From: a virus
Length of the DNA stretch: 35,477 bases
Strand: one strand, 5' to 3'
UHGV virus genome: UHGV-1967114
Positions 1 through 33,770 of this stretch are shown here, piece after piece (positions within the stretch are counted from its first letter, which is position 1; the number at the start of each line of letters is the position of its first letter). The notes below the pieces were generated by a model that worked only from the letters and a program-made list of their open reading frames with translations, was not told the DNA's origin and searched no databases. The position numbers were made by a program, and so were the translations under genes.

Positions 1-263
1 CTGAAGCGTTGACCCAGGGCGAAACAGTTGCTGAAGCGATGGAAGCGGCAAAAGATGCTTTACTGACCGCATTTGATTTTTATTTTGAAGATAATGAGCT
101 AATCCCGTTGCCTTCGCCATTAACTAACAACGATCACTTTATTGAAGTACCTTTGAGCGTCGCCTCTAAAGTATTGCTGTTAAATGCTTTTTTACAGTCA
201 GAAATCACTCAGCAAGAGTTAGCCAGGCGAATTGGCAACCCGAATGTAGTCAACCCAAAATAA
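1..263 (+). CDS. hicB: HicB-family antitoxin, 5' portion of a gene interrupted by prophage insertion (truncated by window start); ORF now ends in 8 phage-derived codons (NPNVVNPK) then stop
   Basis: In-frame translation ...TQGETVAEAMEAAKDALLTAFDFYFEDNELIPLPSP...SEITQQELARRIG matches my recollection of E. coli HicB N-domain plus first half of an XRE-type HTH; second half of the HTH is found at 35268..35381 on the same strand. Confidence 0.75.
   Translation, partial: EALTQGETVAEAMEAAKDALLTAFDFYFEDNELIPLPSPLTNNDHFIEVPLSVASKVLLLNAFLQSEITQQELARRIGNPNVVNPK
231..246. other. attL junction: host ATTGGC - AA - phage CCCGAATG; putative 2-bp crossover AA at 237-238
   Basis: hicB reading frame diverges immediately after codon GGC-AA; compare attR at 35261..35276 where hicB frame resumes after AA. 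Confidence 0.55.
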
Positions 264-434
264 CTAAAAATTTTGCAATAAAAAGCCCCATCACAAGGAC
301 AGGGCTATAGAATCAATGAATTAGAAGAATTCTATAGCAACTGAGTCGCAATTAACACCATAAGAAATGAACTTAGGAACTAACTAGTAATATTCAGGCG
401 TTTAACTATCTCTGATTGTATTATGTCGCCTCTA

Positions 435-1229
435 TCATTTTTTCTCTACACAAGAATATTTCCATTCGATTTCCTTTCCGGTACGGTTGTCAACATAAAT
501 ATGATGATAGTCCAGTGTTCTTACATCATCAACCATCTTATCACCGGAATATGTTTTTCCGTGTTGTGCGTATAACTCTACACCAGTTTTTGTAGTTTTT
601 GACATGAATCCATCAGCGTCAATATTCATTTCCACTACAACTGGGGGGTGCATCGTTCCAGAAATTAGAAGTTTTGCCTTGTCTTTGTTTTTATCGATTA
701 CAATTTTTGTGTTTTCTTTCACTATATCACGATCTTCTACACTCAGTCCGTCAATTGTGGTTATCTTAACTACTTTCGGACAAATATATACGAAGTTGCT
801 ATTTGGGGACTTTTCCAGAACAACTTGTTTCTCTTTGGTTTTTAGAGTTTCTACTGCCTTCGGTTGTTCTTCTTCAACCTTCGCAGAAGTCTCTGAATCG
901 CTTTCTGACGCGGTTTCTTCTTTAGATAATACATCCATCAAGTTTTGGATTTGAGCGTTGTATACAGCCTCCAGTGGCTGAATCTGCCCGATATTGATCA
1001 TTGTATCACGAACAGTTTTATTCCAGTTGCGTTGCTCTTGTTTAAGCGACGGATCAATCTTAACAGCCTTAACATATACTTCATGAAGTTTAGAGTCCAG
1101 TGCGGAGATTGACTCATTAGCACAAATAAACTTCTCTGATTTGGTAGTAGCTTTAGTGCAATCGAAGGATGCAGCATTAGCACCGAATGCAGTAGCAGAA
1201 AGAACGATAGCAGCGATAATGTTTTTCAT
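435..1229 (-). CDS. Secreted protein with N-terminal LprI/DUF1311-like domain (signal peptide MKNIIAAIVLSATAFGANA) and C-terminal Cys-containing domain; probable moron
   Basis: Signal peptide; motif C-x(n)-EKFIC...LD..L...Y....QR.W...RD typical of DUF1311; RBS AGAGG upstream of ATG on minus strand. Confidence 0.6.
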   Translation of the reverse strand: MKNIIAAIVLSATAFGANAASFDCTKATTKSEKFICANESISALDSKLHEVYVKAVKIDPSLKQEQRNWNKTVRDTMINIGQIQPLEAVYNAQIQNLMDVLSKEETASESDSETSAKVEEEQPKAVETLKTKEKQVVLEKSPNSNFVYICPKVVKITTIDGLSVEDRDIVKENTKIVIDKNKDKAKLLISGTMHPPVVVEMNIDADGFMSKTTKTGVELYAQHGKTYSGDKMVDDVRTLDYHHIYVDNRTGKEIEWKYSCVEKK

Positions 1230-1587
1230 TTTATACCTCTTTTGGTATGGACTGACTTTTAGATGCTTACTTTATTGATTTTTGATATTTTTTCAATTAT
1301 TGGGATGAGATTTAGTAATTAAATTAAGAAATTAATGCTTGACAAATTAAAAAGGTACTGTTCCACGGATGAAATAAAGGGAGTTTTCGGCACCCCGGTA
1401 TTTGATGTGCGTGTGAGATTCTAAAACGTGATCACTTCACTTATGGCGCGGTCGCTACGCGACTATTAACCCACTTCCTAACCCTTACCATTACTGGATC
1501 TTTCCCTTCGTTAGAATGCGATTTAGGCGCTTAGATTGTGCGTAAAACCAATAAATAAAATTACGCAAATTTAATGGAGGATAACCA

Positions 1588-2142
1588 ATGAAAGAAGAAT
1601 TAACCCTTACAGAAATTTCCCGTTTATATGGCTATACATTGAATGGTGGCGGTAAGCGATGGTTAGAAAGGGGATTGCCATTTAACACCAATACCCGCCG
1701 CGTGCCAGCCAAAGAAGGAACAGAATGGGTCTTGAAAAATATTATCAACCCGCTTAAACAAACTTCTATCAAAGAACAAATCGACGTAGAGAAATTACGC
1801 CGTGAACGTGCTTTGGCAGATGCAGCCGAACGAGAGAACCAGGAAAAAATGAATCTCCTGATTCCTGTCGGTTATGTAGAACAGGAACTAGCGGAATACT
1901 GCGGGAAAGTGAAACAGACTATTTTGCAGATTTGTACGATCGATGCCCTAGAAATTTTAGAATCCGCCACTGATCAGAAAACATTGAAGAATAAGCTAAG
2001 GGAGATCATCGAACGTCGTTTAAATGAAGTAGGGGACTTGTTCGAAAATGCAGATTTGGGAGAAGACGAGGAAGAAGAATTAGCATTAATGGATGAACCG
2101 GAACAAGAACCAGAAGAAGACGATGAATTTGATGTGTCTTAA
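1588..2142 (+). CDS. Nu1-like DNA-packaging protein / terminase small subunit candidate (N-terminal HTH, GGGK motif, EKLRRE, acidic C-terminus)
   Basis: Pattern resembles lambda Nu1 N-terminus (HTH...GGGK...EKLRRE); strong RBS GGAGG 9 nt upstream; note it is not adjacent to the large subunit. Confidence 0.5.
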   Translation: MKEELTLTEISRLYGYTLNGGGKRWLERGLPFNTNTRRVPAKEGTEWVLKNIINPLKQTSIKEQIDVEKLRRERALADAAERENQEKMNLLIPVGYVEQELAEYCGKVKQTILQICTIDALEILESATDQKTLKNKLREIIERRLNEVGDLFENADLGEDEEEELALMDEPEQEPEEDDEFDVS

Positions 2143-2242
2143 AAATTAGATACTAAATATATACGTGAAGGATGTTGAGCTGGTCAACGTCTACGGGGGA
2201 GAACATCCCCCGCTAACCTTTTTCTTATTTGAGGATTTACCT

Positions 2243-2344
2243 ATGGTTGAATTTTTGATTTATCTGGCTGTAGGATTAACTATCGTATATTCACTTGCTC
2301 ACATTGGCATTTCTACTGTGTGTAACGCTTTCAAGTATCATTAA
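2243..2344 (+). CDS. Small hydrophobic membrane peptide (33 aa)
   Basis: ATG preceded by GAGGA RBS; single predicted TM helix; below ORF-track size cutoff. Confidence 0.3.
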   Translation: MVEFLIYLAVGLTIVYSLAHIGISTVCNAFKYH

Positions 2345-2397
2345 TTAAATCGATGAATTGAACTATAGATGATGGTCGTTTTCAAAGAGGATTATCT

Positions 2398-2571
2398 ATG
2401 GATCTTTTTGTCTACTTTGCTACTCTGCTGTTTTTGACTATCGTCGCTGGCATTAAATTGATTTTTATATCGCTGGTGGTGTTTTTCAAATTTCTAATCG
2501 GTACGCCTTACGGCTGGGTATGCTTAATCCAGTTTATTCTTTTTAGTTGCTGTAAAAAGGATACTAAATAA
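2398..2571 (+). CDS. Small membrane protein (57 aa, two hydrophobic segments)
   Basis: ATG preceded by AGAGGA RBS; hydrophobic composition. Confidence 0.35.
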   Translation: MDLFVYFATLLFLTIVAGIKLIFISLVVFFKFLIGTPYGWVCLIQFILFSCCKKDTK

Positions 2572-2728
2572 TAGTGTAATCTGCCTTTTCTCCTTATGGT
2601 TATTAACAGGGGATCTTCTTTGAGGATTCCCGATTAAAAGCCATAAAACACACTCCAGTACAGTGTTTTCATAGTCAGTGATCTATACAACACAAAAACA
2701 TAACAAGTATAGATTGAGTATTAATCCT

Positions 2729-2757
2729 CCCGCCCTTCGGGGCGGTTATTTTTCTGG
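2729..2757 (+). terminator. Intrinsic terminator (CCCGCCC-TTCG-GGGCGG + T-run)
   Basis: GC stem with UUCG tetraloop followed by TTATTTTTCT. Confidence 0.6.
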
Positions 2758-2830
2758 CTTTAAAGAATAATGTAGCATTATGTTCATTATAACCTCATCT
2801 TTGTTGTGCAAACCTAACCTAAACTTACTA

Positions 2831-2857
2831 GGGACTCTTCGGAGTCCCTTTTTTATT
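2831..2857 (+). terminator. Intrinsic terminator (GGGACTC-TTCG-GAGTCCC + T6)
   Basis: Perfect 7-bp stem, UUCG loop, TTTTTTATT; overlaps 3' end of minus-strand gene 2853..3794. Confidence 0.6.
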
Positions 2858-3794
2858 GGCAGTAAGAAAAGTTAGTACCGTACATTTCATCATGAAGCAT
2901 TGCAGCATTGCGTTTCTGTTCTTCTTCCTCGTCTACCGCATCACTAGAAAAATGAGATTTGCCCTTAAAAGAACGAAGCAATTGCAGTGCAGCCATCGGA
3001 TCACGCATCACATCGATTTTCACTTCTACTTCATCATTTGCGGCCTCATCAGCCGCATTTTCAACTACTGCCACCGGAGCAACTTCTTTAGCTTTCAGTT
3101 CTTCAATTTCAGCTTTCTGGGCTTCGATAATCTGGTCTTTTTCTTCCAGTGCAGCTTTCAGTTCTGCGATCTGTGCTTCCAGTGCAGCAAAGCGATCTTC
3201 TACAACAGGAGAAACAGCATTAACCTGTGCTTCCAGTTCCAGAAATGCTTCGCAAGATTCAATACGTTCTTTCTCTTCACCTTCATAAGCAACCAGTTCT
3301 ACAACTTCTTTTTCGGTAGCGTGGCTGTTAAAGAATACAGCAAAGTAAGGATTGCCGGATTTAGTGAAGTTCAGTTTAGCTTTTCCGGTAACTTCTTTAC
3401 GACGACCGAAGGTGATCTGGCAATCAGCGGTATCCTGAAAATCCATGTTAGGAGCGGAAACGATAGCAGTATCACCAGCAATAACCAGGTGGAACAGTTC
3501 AGAAGAGTTCTTAACGGTAAAGGTAACGATGTGGTCTACTGCAACGTCTTTAGCTGGTTTAACGCGGTCGATTGCTTTACGAATGCCGTTAGGCAGTTTA
3601 CCGTCAACACCAAAGCCAGCCGCGATCAGTGCTTCACGATGTGCTTTAAAGCCAGCGAAAGCGGATTTCTGCTGCGCAAAGGAAACATGAGCAACAACTT
3701 TCGGCTGAATCTTCTTGTTTGCTTCGGTGCCAAATTTGATAACTGCTTTAGCGTTGGTTACTTCGTTAGTGAAAAAGTTAGCGGAAAATAACAT
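2853..3794 (-). CDS. Hypothetical early protein with central coiled coil (AALEAQIAELKAALEEKDQIIEAQKAEIEELKAKE) and acidic region; function unknown
   Basis: 313-aa ORF with normal amino-acid composition; overlapping plus-strand ORFs are low-complexity and rejected. Confidence 0.6.
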   Translation of the reverse strand: MLFSANFFTNEVTNAKAVIKFGTEANKKIQPKVVAHVSFAQQKSAFAGFKAHREALIAAGFGVDGKLPNGIRKAIDRVKPAKDVAVDHIVTFTVKNSSELFHLVIAGDTAIVSAPNMDFQDTADCQITFGRRKEVTGKAKLNFTKSGNPYFAVFFNSHATEKEVVELVAYEGEEKERIESCEAFLELEAQVNAVSPVVEDRFAALEAQIAELKAALEEKDQIIEAQKAEIEELKAKEVAPVAVVENAADEAANDEVEVKIDVMRDPMAALQLLRSFKGKSHFSSDAVDEEEEQKRNAAMLHDEMYGTNFSYCQ

Positions 3795-3840
3795 TATAAA
3801 TACTCCTGTGGAAAGTTAGTTTTAATTGTTCATCGCAAAA

Positions 3841-3875
3841 GCCTCCTTGTTGCCGCAAGGGGGCTTTTTTATTTT
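3841..3875. terminator. Intrinsic terminator, possibly bidirectional (GCCTCCTTG...CAAGGGGGC + T6, A4 on other side)
   Basis: 9-bp stem with one wobble, 6-nt loop, T-run on plus side and short A-run upstream. Confidence 0.55.
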
Positions 3876-3906
3876 TAAAGCCATCATATAATTCTCAGTC
3901 AAAGTA

Positions 3907-4089
3907 TCAGTAAACCTCTGCGGTTATCTTTACTTTAATGTCATACTTCTTTAAGAGTTTGTGGAAGGTTGATTGATCAATACCTTCACCTTTAAACCAT
4001 TCACCAATCACTACATCAGGCGTCAGTTCAAAATAACGCTTTGCCATTTCTAAAACGATTTCACGAGTGAACTTAACAGGTCGTGCCAT
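3907..4089 (-). CDS. Small putative DNA-binding protein (60 aa), member of a 3-gene paralog family sharing motif F.RE...[FY]..LKKY.IKV
   Basis: Strong RBS AGGAGG 8 nt upstream; shared motif with 7207..7467 and both halves of 7470..8045. Confidence 0.55.
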   Translation of the reverse strand: MARPVKFTREIVLEMAKRYFELTPDVVIGEWFKGEGIDQSTFHKLLKKYDIKVKITAEVY

Positions 4090-4124
4090 CTTGAATCCTC
4101 CTAAATCTGGATTAATTATTTCTT

Positions 4125-4147
4125 AAAAAAAAGAGCGTTAACCGCTC
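4125..4147 (-). terminator. Possible leader terminator/attenuator upstream of 3907..4089 (minus strand GAGCG-GTTAA-CGCTC + T8)
   Basis: Short 5-bp stem but followed by 8 consecutive T on minus strand, located between candidate promoter and the gene RBS. Confidence 0.3.
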
Positions 4148-4606
4148 ATTGTTATTTATACGGGGATTGTTTTTTAATTTTTCAACCCCTCACATTTATC
4201 TCTTATATATGTATTTATAACAGAGATATGTTAAAATGTTATTCAGATGTTATCAGGCGTGTTAAATGTGTTAAACCACAGCACGAATTGCTAAAGCGAA
4301 GAACGCGATTTAACCAAATTGATGTATATTTAATCAATTTAGAAAAATGCATAGCACTTTTTGCTAAAGCGGTGAGTATTAATTGAGCTATGAATTGTAA
4401 AGATTTGTTACAGGATTTTCTCTCAGATCCAAACCTTAACAGACATATAACAATTTAACAGGATAATAACAATAGGAAGGAAAATCGGTAAATTTTTACT
4501 TTCAATACAAATATTATAACATATTTATCTCGAATTGTCAATTATACCACTGTTCCTACACAGTGTCAACAAAGGACTTTCAAACCTACACTAGCCCTAC
4601 ACTATG

Positions 4607-4785
4607 AAAATTGCCCCTGAACCAAAATCCCCTAGATTTCACATCCCATTTTTGCCCCTGAAACCCACTATTTTTGCCCCTGAAATTCTGGGAAACAGTG
4701 ATTTTGCCCCTCATTTTTGCCCCTGAAATGCCAATAATTGCCCCTGAAAATCTAATTTTTGCCCCTGAAATTTGCCCCCGAAAAG
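4607..4785 (+). repeat. Array of 8 direct repeats, consensus TTTTTGCCCCTGAAA, spacing 13-41 bp, in a 1.37-kb non-coding region; candidate iterons / protein-binding array
   Basis: Copies at about 4611, 4652, 4674, 4704(variant CTCA), 4717, 4738, 4759, 4772(variant CCCCCGA), all same orientation. Confidence 0.8.
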
Positions 4786-5458
4786 GATTGGTAAGAAAAA
4801 CTCTTTATAAAACATTAAGTTAGTGAGGGCAAAAACGGGGAATTGGGCGTGCATAGATATTATATAACACATTCGCTACGCTCATGTGTAAAACCAAAAA
4901 CAACAAATAACCAAAAAGATATTAGGAGGGCGTAGCCCGACTGCGCGAAGCGCTAACCAATTACTTCTAGTAACACTAATTTAAACTAGATGATACTAGA
5001 TGGTCTTAGAAGGAATTAACTAGTTTGCTCGCTCGCTTCGCTCACTCTCAAACGTCTGCGACGCCACTGCGTGGCATCGAGAATCACTTCTGAAAGGATT
5101 TTCTTGAAAGGGATTTTAAACTAGTTACTAACTGATTCTAGTAAACGAACGAAGTGAGTAACAATCACTTTCTAGAAAGGTATTGGTATCCCTTCGGGAT
5201 TGCAACCTTCGGTTGCTAAATTTCTTCCTGATTATTATTTCTTCAAAAGAAAGATTCTTATATTCTAAAGATACTTCTTCGTTTTGGTGATGATTTAATC
5301 AAAATCTATGAAGGAGGGCTTTAGCCCGACTGAATCCAATCACCTTTCAAGTACAGACCAGTTTTGGACTCTACCAGATCACTCTTTTCATAATAACAAG
5401 AATTTTCTCTTTATAAATAATATTAGATTGATTCACTTTCTTTTAGAGGATTTCCACT

Positions 5459-5926
5459 ATGAACCATAAAATGACTACCACTACTCCTTTTATCCTTCTG
5501 GGTCTGGATTCTGATAGCTTCCACAATGACAAGTTAATGAAGATGTTCCGTGAACGTGGTTATAACATCCTTTTCAACTCTGATGAATCCCATTTCTCTA
5601 GTGCATGGTATGCGTTTTGCCGTAATAAGAAGCCGACCATTGTTGTTAACGTCTTCACCGATGAAGAACGCTTAAAGTACCAGAATCTACCAGCAATTAT
5701 TGTTCGTGATGATCTGCCGTTTCAAGTCCGTTCCGGTGACATTGATCTGGGTAGCTTCGTTACTGTCTATGAACTGGATGAAGCAATGTTTAACTACGGT
5801 AAAGAAACCGCTCAGGAAGCCCCAGAAGAAGATGAACAAGACGAAGATGACGACGACTACGCACCAATCTGTTTTTCTTCTCAGAATGGCTTCTACGGTT
5901 ACGACGAAGGCTTAGATATGCTGTAA
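5459..5926 (+). CDS. Hypothetical early protein with highly acidic C-terminus (EEDEQDEDDDDY)
   Basis: 155-aa ORF, RBS AGAGGA; acidic tail. Confidence 0.6.
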   Translation: MNHKMTTTTPFILLGLDSDSFHNDKLMKMFRERGYNILFNSDESHFSSAWYAFCRNKKPTIVVNVFTDEERLKYQNLPAIIVRDDLPFQVRSGDIDLGSFVTVYELDEAMFNYGKETAQEAPEEDEQDEDDDDYAPICFSSQNGFYGYDEGLDML

Positions 5927-5948
5927 GTTAGGTCAACCCTTTGGTGTC

Positions 5949-5990
5949 TTGTCAAGGGGTATTGACAAAAATTTCTAACTTTTTTATGAT
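5949..5990 (+). promoter_or_regulatory. Sigma70-like promoter (TTGACA 5962-5967, 17-bp spacer, TATGAT 5985-5990) overlapped by inverted repeat TTGTCAA-N6-TTGACAA (5949-5968); candidate operator
   Basis: Near-consensus -35/-10 with optimal spacing; palindromic half-sites; third TTGACAA copy at 5999-6005. Confidence 0.5.
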
Positions 5991-6048
5991 TATCGCACTT
6001 GACAACTATGAATCTATTTGACCTAGATTTGTAAATGGAATGTTAATT

Positions 6049-6195
6049 ATGAACGCTACTAAGAAAATTGATGGACGCAAAAACCCGAACCGCAAACCGT
6101 GGACCCCAAACCTGAATTTCTCAATGGTTGACTTCCATGAACGCCAGCGTCGCATTCAAGAAGAAATTGATCGCGCGATTGCTGAATCTAAATGA
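6049..6195 (+). CDS. Small basic protein (48 aa)
   Basis: ATG downstream of promoter at 5962-5990; basic composition; below ORF-track cutoff. Confidence 0.3.
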   Translation: MNATKKIDGRKNPNRKPWTPNLNFSMVDFHERQRRIQEEIDRAIAESK

Positions 6196-6284
6196 GATAA
6201 AAATTTCTTTATAAATAAAATTGTTCCGGTAGTGATGCCGGAACTAGGAGGATCATCACTAAACCGTTTAAGGGGGATTTTACT

Positions 6285-7127
6285 ATGAATACTGTTACTA
6301 CTATGAATACTGCTATTAAACCTGCTTCCGTGTCTCTGGTTGTTGATAACACCAAACCGCTGACCATGTCTACTTTGCAGATCGCGGAATTAACCGGAAA
6401 GAATCATAAAGATGTTATGCGTGATTTTCGTAATATGGTTGATTCACTTGAAAAGGGTAGCAAACTGGTCGGAGGAGATGAGCGCAATTTTGCGCCCATC
6501 GGTTTTTATAAAGAAACGACTTATAAAGATTCTCTGAATCGTAATAAACCGATGTATGAACTGGATGAAGATCTCTGTAATACTCTGGTTATGGGATACG
6601 ATGCACCGCTTCGCTTCAAAATTGCTAAAGAATGGCGTTTGATGAAAGAAGGTAAAGCTAATGTTCCGGTTAATCCATATGAACACTTTGAAGAAACCGA
6701 TTGGATCGAACTGGCATTAGAGAAAACCCGCGAAAACAAACGTCTGGTTGAATTGCATGTTCGTAAAGCTATCGACACACACAGTCTTAGCCGCTTATTA
6801 GGCGAAAAACGAGGCTCTACGAAGGTACAAATGATTCTGAAAGGTTTATGTGCTGCTGGTGTTCTTGAGCGTCGTCTGGATGATTCTGGTAAGCCTAAAG
6901 GCTATGATCTGCTTCCTCCTGGCTATATGTTCGCTCGTATGTCGGCACACGGTCAGATCGAGTTCACTGCTGATGCTATCCCGCATCTCGTAAAACTCGG
7001 ATTGCTTGAAGAAGAAAAGGCCGCAACTTTGAAATTGCCACAGCCGAATAACTCACGAGCAATCGTCAATAATACTGCTTTGCTGATTCGTCAGAATGCT
7101 GGATCACTGGAACACTTCGGACTGTAA
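6285..7127 (+). CDS. Rha-family phage regulatory protein / antirepressor-like (N-terminal Rha domain, C-terminal Ant-like domain)
   Basis: N-terminal motif LQIAELTGKNHKDVMRDFRNMVDSLE...LVMGYD typical of Phage_pRha domain (recollection). Confidence 0.65.
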   Translation: MNTVTTMNTAIKPASVSLVVDNTKPLTMSTLQIAELTGKNHKDVMRDFRNMVDSLEKGSKLVGGDERNFAPIGFYKETTYKDSLNRNKPMYELDEDLCNTLVMGYDAPLRFKIAKEWRLMKEGKANVPVNPYEHFEETDWIELALEKTRENKRLVELHVRKAIDTHSLSRLLGEKRGSTKVQMILKGLCAAGVLERRLDDSGKPKGYDLLPPGYMFARMSAHGQIEFTADAIPHLVKLGLLEEEKAATLKLPQPNNSRAIVNNTALLIRQNAGSLEHFGL

Positions 7128-7135
7128 TAATTTTT

Positions 7136-7164
7136 GCCCCTGAATTTCAGGGGCTTTTTGTTTT
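7136..7164 (+). terminator. Intrinsic terminator built from one copy of the TTTTTGCCCCTGAA motif paired with its inverted partner (GCCCCTG-AATTT-CAGGGGC + T-run)
   Basis: 7-bp GC stem, 5-nt loop, TTTTTGTTTT immediately downstream of stop at 7127. Confidence 0.65.
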
Positions 7165-7172
7165 CTATAGGT

Positions 7173-7198
7173 ATAAAAAAGCCACTCCGAAGAGTGGC
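7173..7198 (-). terminator. Intrinsic terminator for the minus-strand operon (GCCACTC-CGAA-GAGTGGC, A-run on plus = T-run on minus)
   Basis: Perfect 7-bp stem and tetraloop 9 nt downstream of stop of 7207..7467. Confidence 0.6.
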
Positions 7199-7206
7199 AA
7201 TGAGAA

Positions 7207-7467
7207 TCAAACTCCGTTGATTGGTACAACCTCTCCACCGTCTACACGTATAAAGAACTCGACATTAAGTTTCTTCATACTTTTATAAAACTGGGCGGTG
7301 GAGATGCCCAGATCGTTTAATACTTTCTCTCTGCTTTCTTTACCCTTGCCAGCTTTGTAAAACTCGTAGCAAATGTATGCCAGTTGTTCACGATTAAAAC
7401 GGGCAGGACGACCGCGAGTAGCTTTAGTAGTCATAGTCATTTTCTCCAAATTAAAGTGAATGTTCAC
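7207..7467 (-). CDS. Small putative DNA-binding protein (86 aa), paralog of 3907..4089
   Basis: Shared motif ...FYKSMKKLNVEFFIRVDGGE.. with the C-terminal half of 7470..8045. Confidence 0.55.
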   Translation of the reverse strand: MNIHFNLEKMTMTTKATRGRPARFNREQLAYICYEFYKAGKGKESREKVLNDLGISTAQFYKSMKKLNVEFFIRVDGGEVVPINGV

Positions 7468-7469
7468 CT

Positions 7470-8045
7470 TTATTTAGAGGACTTAGATTTTATAGGAAAA
7501 AGTTCTCCATCGTCAACTGACATAAAGAACTCAACCTTAATCCCGTACTTCTTCAACCGTGAATAATATGTACCCCGACTTATATCAACCTTGCGAAGCA
7601 CTTCAAAGAAGGACTTAGGATCGTTGTAATAGTGGCTGTACTTCACGTTAGCGAGTTCAACGAATAGTTCTCTTGTATCACCATAGTCTTTCTTAAAAGC
7701 CACGTTACGATAGCGTGTAATGGCATGATTCAATCTCTTCTGTTTAAGCACTTCCCTGATCGGTGTCCACTGCAACCGATAGATAGGACCGTCATCTACT
7801 CGATAGAATCGCTTAATGTCAAAATCAAACCACTCACGGACTCGCTGAAACTCTGTCTGTGATGTGCGATGCTTCTTAAAGAAGTTATGAATATCGGTAT
7901 ACCCATTATCACGATACAACTCGATTAAAATCTGTTTAGCTTCCTCACGACTAAAGCCAGATGTTGTGTAGTCGGTCTTTAAGTGCTTATGTTTTACTGG
8001 CAAACGATATTCATGATCGGTACAAGACAAGACAAGACAAGACAA
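7470..8045 (-). CDS. Protein with tandem duplication of the same HTH-like module (191 aa); start codon uncertain (only TTG candidates, inside the pentanucleotide repeat)
   Basis: Two internal copies of the family motif ending VDDG; no in-frame ATG near 5' end. Confidence 0.45.
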   Translation of the reverse strand: MSCLVLSCTDHEYRLPVKHKHLKTDYTTSGFSREEAKQILIELYRDNGYTDIHNFFKKHRTSQTEFQRVREWFDFDIKRFYRVDDGPIYRLQWTPIREVLKQKRLNHAITRYRNVAFKKDYGDTRELFVELANVKYSHYYNDPKSFFEVLRKVDISRGTYYSRLKKYGIKVEFFMSVDDGELFPIKSKSSK

Positions 8046-8056
8046 GACAAGACAAG
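8022..8056. repeat. Pentanucleotide microsatellite (ACAAG)x7 (CTTGT on minus strand)
   Basis: Seven perfect tandem units read directly from the sequence. Confidence 0.9.
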
Positions 8057-8185
8057 GCTAATTCTAATTCATCTCTTTCTTGCTGATTAATTAGCATACA
8101 CCCCCCCTTAAATCTTAATACCCGTATTTATCAAAATATCAACAATTTAATAAATACCTTCATATTTCGTAATGAGGGTAATTAC

Positions 8186-10099
8186 ATGAAACTGATTTCT
8201 AATAAGGCCAAATTAAAAAAGATTCTCAGAAATGCAGCCAAATATATTACGCCACCGCCTAAACTCCTTCCTTCTGAATGGTGCGAAGCGAATCTAACGC
8301 TAGTCGATGGTCCTCGTGCTGGGGATAAAGTTAAATTACTGTCATTTCAGAAAGGCATGATTGATGCTCCTTTCCTTGAGAAGAAAAAGAAGTACGTTTT
8401 TTGTACGAGTGCGCAGATCGGAAAGACGACCATCATGTCAGGGATCATGTTTAACCAGATGGCAAACGATCCGTGCAATATCATTATCGGGCAAAGTACC
8501 GCTAAAGAAGTGGCTATGTACTTGAATACTAAGATCCGTCCTTCTATTGAAGCATGTCCGGCATTACAGGAAGTGGTAACAGATAAGAATGATCGTAATG
8601 CGGTAAACAACAATAACCAGATTCAGCTAAAAACAAACCATTTCCTTTACATGGTTTCTTTGACCAGTCCTTCAAGTTTGCGTGGGCGTACTGCCAAGTT
8701 AGGGATTGTAGACGAATGCGACGCAGCAACAATCACCGAAGAAGGTTGTCCGGTGGCACTAACTGCAAACCGTTTAACTACCTTTGGTGATGAAGCTCGA
8801 TTGATTGTTTCTAGTACCCCAACCAATAAGCTGGGAATCATTAACCAGCAATGGTTATCAAGTGATATGCGTATGTTTTTTGTTCCGTGTCCTCATTGCG
8901 GGGAACACCAGGTGATCGAGTGGGAAAACGTTCAATTTGAATGGCGTAACATCGATGGTAAGAACTTACCCGATCCTGATACCGCTCGTTATATTTGCCC
9001 CCACTGTAAGCAATCATGGACAGAAGGGGAACGAATCAGGGCAGTAGCGCAAGGCGAGTGGAGAGCAACCCGTGAAAGTGAAGTAGCAGGATTCTGGATC
9101 AGCCGTCTGTATTCACCTTTCAGTAGTATCCGCGCTTGTGTGGTTGATTTTAGTCATGCGTGGCAATCCTTTGATTTACAATCATTTTATAACACAGTGT
9201 TAGGTAAGGTATACGACGATCAGGACACGGCAGTAGAAGCAAATGAACTGGAACAACTCAAAACAGATGTTTCTATCGAGAATATCCCTGATGACGTGAT
9301 TTTCTTGTGTGCGGGTACTGACCAGCAATTAGATCGCGCAGAAACTACGATCATGGGCGTGGCAAAGGATAAGATTTATATTCTGGATCATCGCAGCTTT
9401 TACGACCATAACTGTGAACGATATGAATCTCCTGTATGGGACAGATTAATCAACTTCCATAAAACCAAATTTACTACTGTATCGGGTGATCGTGTTCCTA
9501 TGCTCGCCAGCTTCCTTGATACATCGAACGGTCGATTCACTCAAGCCGGATACCGTATTTGCGGTGGTAAGTGGAAGAACTTACACGCAATCAAAGGTAG
9601 TTCATCTGGTACTGCTCCAATCATTCCGGTGAAACCAACTACCACGGGTGGTCATGAATTGCTTATGTTGGGCGTTAACGTGGGTAAAACGGCTATTCGT
9701 GAGCTATTAACACGCAACTTGAAAGAAAACCCTCATATTGGTTTAGAGATATCAGAAACCGTTCCTGATGATTATCTCGATCAGCTTTTGAGTGAATCCA
9801 TCAAGCGTACTGTTACTGGAACACGTTGGGTAAAAAATCCAGGTGCGACACGAAACGAGGCGCTCGACTGTCTGGTTTATAGCTATGCGGCTTCTCGCTA
9901 TGTTCTTTCAAAAATGTCATGGGATAAGCTCATTGCAATGAAAGAAAAGCTGAATCGTGAACCAGAAGCAACCGTAGAAGCTCCTAAATCACATTCTAAC
10001 GAGCAAATCGAAGAAACTAAGCCAATCACTCATCACAAACCTAATCGTCGTCCTATGGCGCGTCCTGTGCGTCGTGGTGGGTGGGTAAATAACTTTTAA
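8186..10099 (+). CDS. Terminase large subunit (lambda gpA-like ATPase/nuclease)
   Basis: 637 aa; Walker A-like SAQIGKTT and Walker B LGIVDECD; CPHCGEH...CPHCKQ motif; position upstream of portal. Confidence 0.85.
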
Positions 10100-31779: not shown

Positions 31780-32052
31780 CTATGATTTATTTTCTTGTTC
31801 TATGAAAATCTTTCTCACCTCATCAGAATAAATGTCTAGTGATTCCTCATAACATTTTCTGTATTCACCGTAATTACTGGTGGTCTTTTGACATAGCAAT
31901 TTCAATGTTTTATGTGCTCCATCAATGAAAGCATCTTCTCTATAGGTTAGCGGTCTACGCATTTCTTGGTCTACGGTTGCCAATGCCAGGCAAGAATTCA
32001 TAGATAAAATCAAACCTAAAATCTTAATCATCTTCATTAGCTTAAATTCCAA
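31780..32052 (-). CDS. Small secreted protein (signal peptide MKMIKILGLILSMNSCLALA), Cys-containing
   Basis: Hydrophobic N-terminus with ALA cleavage-like site; overlaps 3' end of recombinase gene. Confidence 0.5.
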   Translation of the reverse strand: MEFKLMKMIKILGLILSMNSCLALATVDQEMRRPLTYREDAFIDGAHKTLKLLCQKTTSNYGEYRKCYEESLDIYSDEVRKIFIEQENKS

Positions 32053-33721
32053 ATTCCTGTAATGGACCTGGTATTTCTTCTTCTGGTTTCCAGTTCTTAT
32101 CTGTCAGCATGTCTAAACATGGATGCAGAACAAGCCCGTTACTCTCCAGAATCTGCCTATCATTGATAGTCTTCAAATCAATGAAGATCCGGCCTTTCCT
32201 CGGTCCTCTTGAATTTTCTATTACAACTCTCTGGGTCTTGCCATCGATGTATTCCAATACAAACAAGTTTTTGTACTTGTCAATCCTGCTACACCCGATC
32301 CGTTTTAGAGCTTGCTTAATCTTAAACCGGACCTTAATGCGATCCTCGTTGTAAACATCTTCTAAATCAAATTCTGCGAGCTTCTCCCAGCCTTGAGAGT
32401 CAACAGAATACATTTCCTCTTCTGCCATCTTAATTTGATTGTAGAGTGTTTCACGCTCGCTATTGAGGGTAGTAATCTGATCGGCTAGCTCCTTCGTTGC
32501 TCCTGTCATAGCAGAAAGGGTAATCAGGTTATCAATCTTGCGTGATATTTCATCAATCTGTACTTTCAAAGCCGGAACCGGATTAGCCTTATCTTCAGCA
32601 ATCCAGATTTTATCAGCCAGCAATTGCAATACAGCTTTCTCTAATTGGTCGCCGCGAAAACTCCAGTTTGTATGCACACATTCAATACGACTAGAGCGCA
32701 TTGCATCGCATGAATAACGATATTGGTTAGGCCGTCTGTTTGTTCCTTTCACCTTAACCATAGCGGAACCGCAATGTTCACATTTCAATAGACCAACACC
32801 ACTAAGCAAGGGAATAGGTTTAACTTCTTCTTTGTCTCCAAAGTTACATGCTCTAACACCAATGCTTTTCTTAAGGTGATAAAACTCAGCGTCATCTAGC
32901 ACACGAGGATAATAATCCTTTAACTCATACTTAACGCCATCTACAGAGATTTCCTTGATACCAATCAAAGCGCGGGTATGGAACAACCTTTCAATCATTG
33001 CCCGTGACCAGTTTGAATGCCTCTTGTGACTTGCGGCTGGTGGTGGTGTGTATGTCGCGTTAAGGTGATCCAGTATCTCGGCGGTTGACCGTCCATTCCT
33101 GCGTAATTCCACAACTTCCTGAACAATAGGGAAGAAGACCGGATGAGGAAGCACATAACCAGATGTGGTATCAGTCCACCACATATTCTTTCCAATTTCC
33201 TCGATTGCAACAGCCGGATTTTGTGGATTTTCTTGATGAGCTTTAATCTTAATCAGTGCGCTTGAGTTAGTACGATTGCGCTTAGTCTGGCTTTCCTCAT
33301 TACCACGGATGAATAAAAGGATGGAGAACATCAGGTCCATCGGGTTAGCGGTAACAGTATCCAGCGAGTAGATCTTGTTATCCATGCCAGTAACAATGGT
33401 TATCCCCCTACGGATGATTGAAAGGAATAACTCCTGCGCACTGACAATATCGGCACGGGATAAACGGTCCAAGTTTTCGATGAATAGCCAGCTACCAACA
33501 GGAACGGATCTACCTATTGCATCAAGGAAACGAGATAGCGCCCCTGTTTTGGAGTTAGCACCCTTAAACGCAGATACACCCAGATCCTGATAATCATTTA
33601 CCAGTTCAAGGTCATACTTTACCGCAATCTCTCTAGCCATCCTGATTTGTCGTTCATAACTCGAACCATCATTCTGACGCATAGACGAGAAGCGAATATA
33701 CGAATACAGTTTAGTTTTCAT
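32042..33721 (-). CDS. Large serine recombinase (probable prophage integrase); start taken at ATG 33721
   Basis: N-terminal resolvase-type motif YIRFSSMRQ (catalytic Ser), central recombinase region, zinc-ribbon CEHCGSAMVKV...YRYSCD...IECVH; 559 aa. Confidence 0.85.
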   Translation of the reverse strand: MKTKLYSYIRFSSMRQNDGSSYERQIRMAREIAVKYDLELVNDYQDLGVSAFKGANSKTGALSRFLDAIGRSVPVGSWLFIENLDRLSRADIVSAQELFLSIIRRGITIVTGMDNKIYSLDTVTANPMDLMFSILLFIRGNEESQTKRNRTNSSALIKIKAHQENPQNPAVAIEEIGKNMWWTDTTSGYVLPHPVFFPIVQEVVELRRNGRSTAEILDHLNATYTPPPAASHKRHSNWSRAMIERLFHTRALIGIKEISVDGVKYELKDYYPRVLDDAEFYHLKKSIGVRACNFGDKEEVKPIPLLSGVGLLKCEHCGSAMVKVKGTNRRPNQYRYSCDAMRSSRIECVHTNWSFRGDQLEKAVLQLLADKIWIAEDKANPVPALKVQIDEISRKIDNLITLSAMTGATKELADQITTLNSERETLYNQIKMAEEEMYSVDSQGWEKLAEFDLEDVYNEDRIKVRFKIKQALKRIGCSRIDKYKNLFVLEYIDGKTQRVVIENSRGPRKGRIFIDLKTINDRQILESNGLVLHPCLDMLTDKNWKPEEEIPGPLQEFGI

Positions 33722-33730
33722 ACCATTTCC

Positions 33731-33770
33731 AAACAAAAACGCCCCTACCGCGTATTATAACGATAGGGGC
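33731..33770 (-). terminator. Terminator-like hairpin between secreted-protein gene and recombinase gene (minus strand)
   Basis: GCCCCTA...TAGGGGC stem with 16-nt loop, followed on minus strand by GTTTTTGTTT. Confidence 0.45.

Follow-up and report, generated by a model that had tools for sequence, protein, structure and literature searches.

The virus genome UHGV-1967114 (35,477 nt, the whole of which we call the window) is an E. coli prophage of ~35.1 kb, integrated into hicB, in which the genes for the two terminase subunits are set far apart. A 184-residue product is encoded near the left end by an open reading frame (ORF) we call ORF184, or terS; the gene for the large subunit, terL, begins 6,043 nt beyond the ORF184 stop, both genes being on the plus strand. 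ORF184 is probably a real small terminase subunit gene lying beside a cohesive-end site (cos), with a variable early/regulatory block between terS and terL. We base this reading on the homology of its product to phage lambda Nu1, the canonical position of its homologues in a sister clade, the conservation of the split, the lack of any other TerS candidate, the linkage of a cos-like element to terS, the likeness of that element to the sequence at which the phage ECOO78 record ends, and the pairing of ORF184 with terL alleles. An original prediction, made from the sequence of the window, had described a Nu1-like gene parted from terL by an early/regulatory block and a repeat array, and both halves of that description hold. 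Coordinates are collected in Table 1.

Family membership of ORF184

The sole match of ORF184 among PHROG families is phrog_57, 'terminase small subunit' (6e-11, residues 24-172), to which lambda Nu1 itself belongs (1e-77). A profile search of 1.8 billion representative proteins returned 229 relatives. Alignment to lambda Nu1 with hhalign gave 93.7% probability (E 2e-7) for 20 close homologues and 99.0% (E 6e-18) for 60 remote homologues, the latter over 124 columns and extending to Nu1 residue 144. Among 60 remote full-length homologues, 25 match PF07471 (Phage_Nu1) and 7 match DUF1441. Because of these phrog_57, hhalign and PF07471 results the term 'Nu1-like' is correct and is not limited to the DNA-binding domain, ~130 residues past the helix-turn-helix being homologous to Nu1. 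No excisionase, HTH_17, MerR or regulator family match was found for ORF184 in Pfam, NCBIfam or PHROG. On the strength of these alignments we place ORF184 in the lambda Nu1 superfamily, with homology reaching beyond the DNA-binding domain.

An AlphaFold2 model of the protein (mean predicted local distance difference test score, pLDDT, 73) contains a strand at residues 4-6, helices at 7-14 and 21-27, a second strand at 38-40, further helices at 41-89, 94-118 and 130-153, and a disordered segment at 158-178. The N-terminal strand/helix unit aligns to Nu1 residues 2-50 as a winged helix-turn-helix, and weak PDB profile matches are to three small-terminase N-terminal domains (6hn7, 1j9i, 7lw0). 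The long helices (41-89 and 94-153) align with Nu1 up to residue 144 and constitute a helical self-association region, through which ORF184 is predicted to self-associate. The C-terminus does not align with that of Nu1; it is a conserved acidic tail ending in EFDVS. A UDP-sugar epimerase match that led the PDB sequence searches was rejected as spurious. Homologues are full length in most of 73 clusters, with few annotated as partial; a tblastn search of deposited phages returned a single match, inside a chimeric record. The NCBI Prokaryotic Genome Annotation Pipeline (PGAP) and most other sources label the ORF184 product hypothetical.

Gene order in relatives

Relatives were taken from genomes and from IMG/VR, and terS and terL were located in them by tblastn. 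A split clade comprises 38 distinct contigs in which terS is 100% to ~35% identical to ORF184 and terL 100% to ~48% identical to that of the window; terS lies 4,857-8,557 nt upstream of terL on the same strand in every one (38/38). Hosts are E. coli, Salmonella and Proteus, in addition to the IMG/VR contigs, and homologous proteins are also on record from Citrobacter and Rahnella. A sister clade of 80 loci has the canonical order, with terS (29-33% identical to ORF184) abutting or overlapping terL (35-43%) at a spacing of -88 to +23 nt. Its terS homologues are recovered by the close-family profile of ORF184 at E 3e-28 to 3.5e-20 and are called 'terminase small subunit' or 'Nu1' by their sources (Serratia, Pantoea). 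One such locus reads serine recombinase, early genes, terS, terL. The canonical adjacency upstream of a gpA-type terL, a feature of gene order and not of the protein, is absent for ORF184 in the window. In a Hafnia relative, and in the temperate part of the chimeric DCP80 record, the Nu1-like gene follows the tail/lysis genes, distant from terL.

Because the split is common to all split-clade members found, across several genera, it is by these comparisons an old and stable trait of one clade, in which the content of the gap is mosaic and the gap itself is not. The original prediction had proposed synteny with relatives as a check, and had offered, as one account of the separation, a mosaic insertion splitting the packaging module. 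As a recent event this does not hold: the split recurs in all the members that we recovered from a clade present in several genera, and mosaicism is confined to what the block contains. A literature search returned no relevant report on split terS/terL or on hicB-inserted prophages; the paper on capsid-forming phage-inducible chromosomal islands (cf-PICIs) describes adjacent hnh-terS-terL.

The DCP80 record (GenBank PQ671644, 'Escherichia phage DCP80', 141 kb) is itself chimeric. Its first ~26.3 kb are a relative of the window prophage, with a terL 43% identical and a Nu1-like gene after the endolysin gene, and the remainder is T4-like and includes two copies of rIIA that point in opposite directions.

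Search for another small subunit

ORF184 is the only ORF of the 35.1-kb prophage to match a small-terminase family in Pfam, NCBIfam or PHROG. No plus-strand gene lies between the end of the Rha gene (7127) and terL, the interval 7128-8185 holding only opposite-strand or non-coding sequence. The two genes beside terL (86 aa and ~200 aa) are on the minus strand, are missing in more distant split-clade members and show no likeness to any solved structure. The ~200-aa gene was considered as an alternative TerS and rejected, having no family, PDB sequence or Foldseek match; its AlphaFold2 model consists of two tandem three-helix-plus-hairpin modules. The outcome that the original prediction had named as telling against a split packaging module, an ORF184 unrelated to small terminase subunits together with another TerS gene next to 8186, was thus not what we found.

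Only within the E. coli / Salmonella / Proteus branch do the window's block genes have homologues. In other split-clade members the block instead carries genes for an antirepressor, a homing endonuclease, an LprI-like protein or endonuclease VII; in the more distant ones, these genes or one for a GntR-like regulator take the place next to terL.

A cos-like element upstream of terS

Among relatives, the 240 nt that precede ORF184 are conserved even where the cargo farther left is wholly different; leftward beyond 1339 the relatives are unrelated. Short collinear matches to the regions upstream of sister-clade terS revealed a common motif, and a DNA profile of the element, built from 15 copies, finds one plus-strand match in nearly every locus, beside the Nu1-like gene in both clades (two loci have two weak matches). 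Its sole match in the window is at 1328-1431 (E 9e-15), so that neither the vicinity of terL nor the repeat array at 4600-4790 contains a copy. The layout is constant in 72 distinct copies: an A/T-rich stretch, the heptamer AGGT[AT]CT, ~21 variable bases, a core, a T-rich run and a TATGTG-like box. The core, GCG[TAG][AG]GTTT(T)CG[GA]C, is the most conserved block, and the short inverted repeats that flank it vary yet remain complementary. In Hafnia relatives the element comes just after the Nu1-like gene, which argues against a promoter or leader role. A search of window positions 1-9000 against Rfam gave only sub-threshold chance matches.

Phages of the genus Jilinvirus (vB_EcoM-ep3, ECOO78, Bas97, Arya, KA2-1) have AAGGTACTTCCGGAGGGGG or GGGTCCT before terS, a motif also present in the window element. 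Their terS-upstream sequence reads AAGGTACTTCCGGAGGGGGTACAGCCTGC / GGGGCATTGGTCC / CGCATAATTCGCG, and in ECOO78 24 of its first 27 bases agree with those of L116, a locus of the sister clade. Both ends of the linear ECOO78 record carry the 13-mer GGGGCATTGGTCC, the KA2-1 record starts at the same base, and the Arya record starts 4 nt earlier, which is the pattern expected of filled-in 13-nt cohesive ends; this 13-nt repeat, as defined by the record ends, begins 21 nt after the heptamer. In the lambda record GGGTCCT begins 30 nt before the right end, which is the position of lambda cosQ. The heptamer stands 21-23 nt ahead of the chromosome end in both lambda and Jilinvirus. The lambda junction runs GGGTCCT, 23 nt, chromosome end, GGGCGGCGACCT, CGCGGGTTTTCGC, and the window runs AGGTACT, ~21 nt, GGGAGTTTTCGGCACCCC, its core resembling lambda bases 13-24 (CGCGGGTTTTCGC). 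We infer from this layout that the element is a candidate cos, with nicking predicted at or near its core. The blocks between 1400 and 1587 are conserved among E. coli variants and partly in Salmonella, and by analogy with the lambda layout their repeated motifs are candidate TerS-binding sites.

The original prediction had suggested that the packaging site could lie either just upstream of ORF184 (1380-1580) or in the repeat array. The upstream location survives as the best candidate, with a slight shift to the left, to 1328-1431, and the array does not. The latter consists of TTTTTGCCCCTGAAA in 7-8 copies spaced 21-22 bp, with a further copy at 7134 that forms the terminator hairpin after the Rha gene. 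It is unlike the cos-like element and adjoins two tandem 12/12 consensus sigma-70 promoters that run leftward and face the 60-aa and 313-aa genes; in Salmonella and Proteus relatives an array is found at the equivalent place with a different 11-bp unit, ATCCCTAGAAC. We rejected it as a packaging site on these grounds. Its appearance is that of an early-region array of iterons or operators.

The large subunit and its pairing with ORF184

Both gpA domains are present in the terL product, PF05876 (GpA_ATPase) at 1e-55 over residues 54-292 and PF20454 (GpA_nuclease) at 3e-45 over residues 301-572, and it matches phrog_15 at 6e-135. Its identity as a large terminase, judged by these family matches, is unambiguous. 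The reading frame is intact in the window.

E. coli relatives with a 97-100% identical ORF184 and an identical cos element carry a terL that is either 87-100% or ~55% identical to that of the window. The first 14 TerL residues are identical between two E. coli alleles that are only 55% identical overall and that are paired with 100%-identical ORF184 and cos, and a basic motif akin to this N-terminus is seen across the terL family. DNA homology between the window and one relative (L012) is lost at 8234, 48 nt into terL, and regained at 9821. An acidic ORF184 tail and a conserved basic TerL N-terminus would fit a contact between tail and N-terminus of the lambda type, and we infer such a contact by analogy, the combination being suggestive.

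Set against L012, the middle 1.6 kb of terL (8234-9821), which encodes the ATPase and most of the nuclease domain, is a divergent allele in which DNA similarity is undetectable, flanked by sequence 84-99% identical; by this comparison it is a mosaic patch within an essential gene. In the copy of the prophage in strain PI7, the counterpart of window 8186-10099 (L001, 26686-28712) is annotated as frameshifted, with an internal stop.

Proposed mechanism and alternative explanations

By analogy with lambda, the winged helix-turn-helix of TerS would bind sites beside cosN. TerL would be recruited by contact between the acidic C-terminal tail of TerS and its own basic N-terminal peptide, and would nick cosN. 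Packaging would run rightward through terS, the early block, terL and the head, tail and lysis genes, would continue through the recombinase gene, attP and the LprI cargo gene, and would stop at the next cos. In this lineage cos would have stayed with terS. More tentatively, terS and cos might form a cassette that is exchanged and regulated independently, with the specificity between TerS and TerL conveyed by the acidic tail and the invariant 14-residue TerL N-terminus; TerS, being transcribed outside the late operon, might then double as an early DNA-binding regulator near attP and cos. We regard this extension as less likely than not.

These conclusions must be tempered by several results that point the other way. 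ORF184 has zero matches in Pfam and NCBIfam, with none to PF07471 at E<=0.1; Foldseek with its model returns only weak matches, to MerR, BldC and RacA; and no convincing sigma-70 promoter for terS was found upstream. The element is read as cos by homology and analogy. Its profile leaves the lambda cos junction unscored and scores Bas97 marginally, and none of 7 metagenome contigs with the element ends at it. In lambda and Jilinvirus the heptamer stands ~14 nt farther from the analogous box than it does here from the core box, so the nick register is uncertain by several bases. The Jilinvirus ends are ends of GenBank records, for which we found no published experiment, the ECOO78 and Arya papers giving no termini. 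The conserved TerL N-terminus could equally be a mere recombination boundary.

ORF184 might instead be a Nu1-derived DNA-binding protein put to another use, for instance as a transcription regulator or as the serine recombinase's recombination directionality factor, with packaging carried out by an unrecognised small subunit or by TerL alone. The gene stands outside the late operon, ~1.3 kb from attL and in a regulatory neighbourhood, with an inverted repeat directly before its ribosome-binding site, and it is mostly annotated as hypothetical. The Nu1 N-terminal fold is moreover common to excisionases and MerR-type regulators (lambda Nu1 itself weakly matches excisionase PHROGs), and the weak Foldseek matches noted above are of that kind. 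Apart from this shared DNA-binding fold, the support is mainly positional, and it has to be set against homology that spans the Nu1 self-association region and not just the helix-turn-helix, the lack of any excisionase or regulator family match, the canonical TerS position of the sister-clade homologues, the failure to find an alternative TerS in the prophage, and a cos-like element that stays linked to ORF184. We therefore consider quite unlikely the suggestion, already raised in the original prediction, that the gene is a DNA-binding regulator rather than a terminase subunit.

If ORF184 is TerS, the element at 1328-1431 could still be a transcription signal (a promoter, a protein-binding hairpin or an attenuator), the real cos lying somewhere else, perhaps at 8004-8185. 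The combination of a short dyad and a T-rich run behind it would suit a terminator or protein-binding hairpin, but the stems are mostly 3 bp with loops of 10-12 nt, too weak for an intrinsic terminator; a TTGACA occurs at 1339-1344, but no -10 hexamer matches it. The 180-nt intergenic stretch upstream of terL carries a pentanucleotide repeat, yet it holds no copy of the element or similar sequence. Against this view, the element is downstream of the gene in the Hafnia relatives, and its left half matches the Jilinvirus region to which record ends map. On balance we find this reading unlikely. The last alternative, that an insertion or rearrangement in a decaying prophage has recently broken a canonical terS-terL pair, could appeal to the frameshifted terL of the PI7 copy and to the disruption by repeat expansion of the window gene beside terL. 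It is already contradicted by the survey of gene order, in which 38 distinct contigs from several genera share the arrangement down to ~35% identity in terS and ~48% in terL; ORF184 homologues are mostly full length and the window terL is intact. An accident of this sort seems to us exceedingly improbable.

Comparison with known systems

The prophage shares with the lambda cos-Nu1-A region a gpA-family large subunit, a small subunit of the Nu1 family whose N-terminal winged helix-turn-helix precedes a helical assembly region, the head-gene order terL, head-tail joining, portal, and a cosQ-like heptamer ~21-23 nt before a dyad-flanked region, here the predicted nicking region, that is upstream of terS and in the same orientation. 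It differs in that Nu1 overlaps A by 26 nt, whereas here early/regulatory genes intervene and terS is outside the late operon; ORF184 also fails the Pfam Nu1 model, its acidic tail is unaligned to the Nu1 C-terminus, and the candidate cos sequence is different, the element profile missing lambda cos. The sister clade (Serratia, Pantoea; IMG/VR loci L037-L116, L154) has homologous terS, terL, portal, protease-capsid fusion and tail genes, a cos-like element upstream of terS and, in at least one case, a large serine recombinase; by contrast, terS there overlaps terL, with the early genes upstream of terS. Jilinvirus has a gpA-type terL (~28-29% identity) but adjacent terS and terL, a different cohesive-end region and right flank, and other tail and early modules.

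P2 and 186 are cos phages in which the genes for the small (gpM) and large (gpP) terminase subunits are likewise not adjacent. The P2 terminase genes belong to other protein families and are separated by scaffold and capsid genes, in divergent late operons. Unlike in the window, no early/regulatory block lies between the terminase genes of P2.

What we describe is a familiar machine in a non-canonical but conserved arrangement, and it leaves the known mechanism of cos packaging unchanged. Being divergent and not beside terL, this TerS is left as 'hypothetical' by annotation pipelines, and predictors of prophages and of packaging type that rely on a terS-terL pair will misjudge these prophages, a group widespread in E. 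coli, Salmonella and Proteus. The lineage is also a natural experiment, with a lambda-type terminase whose subunits are neither co-transcribed nor translationally coupled and in which cos and terS recombine independently of terL. As such it offers a simple system in which to ask how little of TerL suffices to recognise TerS.

Features of the prophage

Table 1. Features of the window that bear on packaging, with the flanking genes for which coordinates are given
Feature	Position	Strand	Description
LprI-family cargo gene	435-1229	-	Between attL and ORF184
Conserved non-coding element, ~100 nt	1328..1431	+	Candidate cos (cosQ + cosN region)
cosQ-like heptamer AGGTACT	1353..1359	+	Position as AGGTACT in ECOO78 and Bas97, GGGTCCT in Arya and KA2-1
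cosN-like core GGGAGTTTTCGGCACCCC	1379..1396	+	Predicted nicking region; starts ~21 nt after heptamer, where ECOO78 record ends map
Candidate cosB / terS leader	1400..1587	+	TGTGCGT at 1406-1412 and 1537-1543
Inverted pair TGCGTAA / TTACGCA	1539-1545 and 1561-1567		In candidate cosB / terS leader
ORF184 / terS	1588..2142	+	ATG start, 184 aa; probable small terminase subunit, divergent member of Nu1 family; winged helix-turn-helix at N-terminus, then long helices and acidic disordered tail ending EFDVS
Intervening early/regulatory block	2143..8185		Separates packaging halves, not itself packaging machinery
Tandem consensus promoters	4569-4513	-	Beside array
Repeat array	4600-4790		Iteron- or operator-like
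Rha gene	6285-7127		In right part of block
terL	8186..10099	+	637 aa; gpA family; heads late operon
terL first 16 codons	8186..8233	+	Basic N-terminal peptide; candidate TerS-contact segment
Large serine recombinase gene	32042-33736	-	Followed by three small minus-strand genes and attR

The copy of the prophage in strain PI7 is 99.9% identical across the 12 kb compared, and in it the 5' part of hicB stops at approximately window position 242 and the 3' part restarts at approximately 35,375. From attL the gene order is the LprI-family cargo gene, ORF184 and the 6-kb early/regulatory block; then terL and the genes for head-tail joining, portal and a protease-capsid fusion; then major tail, tail fibre, tape measure, distal tail and tail tip, followed by endolysin; and finally the recombinase end of the prophage up to attR. 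The block contains, on its left, two small plus-strand ORFs, the minus-strand genes for a 313-aa coiled-coil protein and a 60-aa protein, and the array, which falls in a non-coding stretch of 1.35 kb; on its right are genes for a 155-aa acidic protein and Rha, and the minus-strand 86-aa and ~200-aa genes. Nearly all of the early-block proteins are without assigned function, and family searches recognised no repressor, Cro-like, replication initiator, helicase or primase gene in what otherwise looks like a complete 35.1-kb prophage.

Three minus-strand genes of the block (3907-4089, 7207-7467 and 7470-8096) encode products that share a C-terminal module (..YY.RLKKYGIKVEFF..D.GE..P), of which the largest protein (7470-8096) holds two in its AlphaFold2 model. 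This last gene, divergent from terL, contains (CTTGT)7 at 8022-8056. The copy number of CTTGT is 2 in 22 related loci, 9 in one contig and 7 in the window; at 7 or 9 copies, translation from the normal start codon at 8096 is in the wrong frame and meets a stop near 8011. The gene is either broken or a candidate on/off switch of the slipped-strand type.

One part of the LprI-family cargo gene (859-1235) shares 95-97% DNA identity with a hypothetical gene found in virulent T4-type phages that resemble RB49 (Krischvirus), a match which implies that a temperate prophage and lytic phages have recently exchanged DNA. In the att region (window 237-256; positions 1-135 of L009 and the end of L193), two independent contigs of 35.5 and 36.7 kb start no more than 6 nt apart, ~30 nt left of a match to the att-junction region AACCCGAAYGTAGTCAACCC, and are probably assemblies bounded by the attachment site. 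The variants behind these two contigs have no cargo gene between att and cos.

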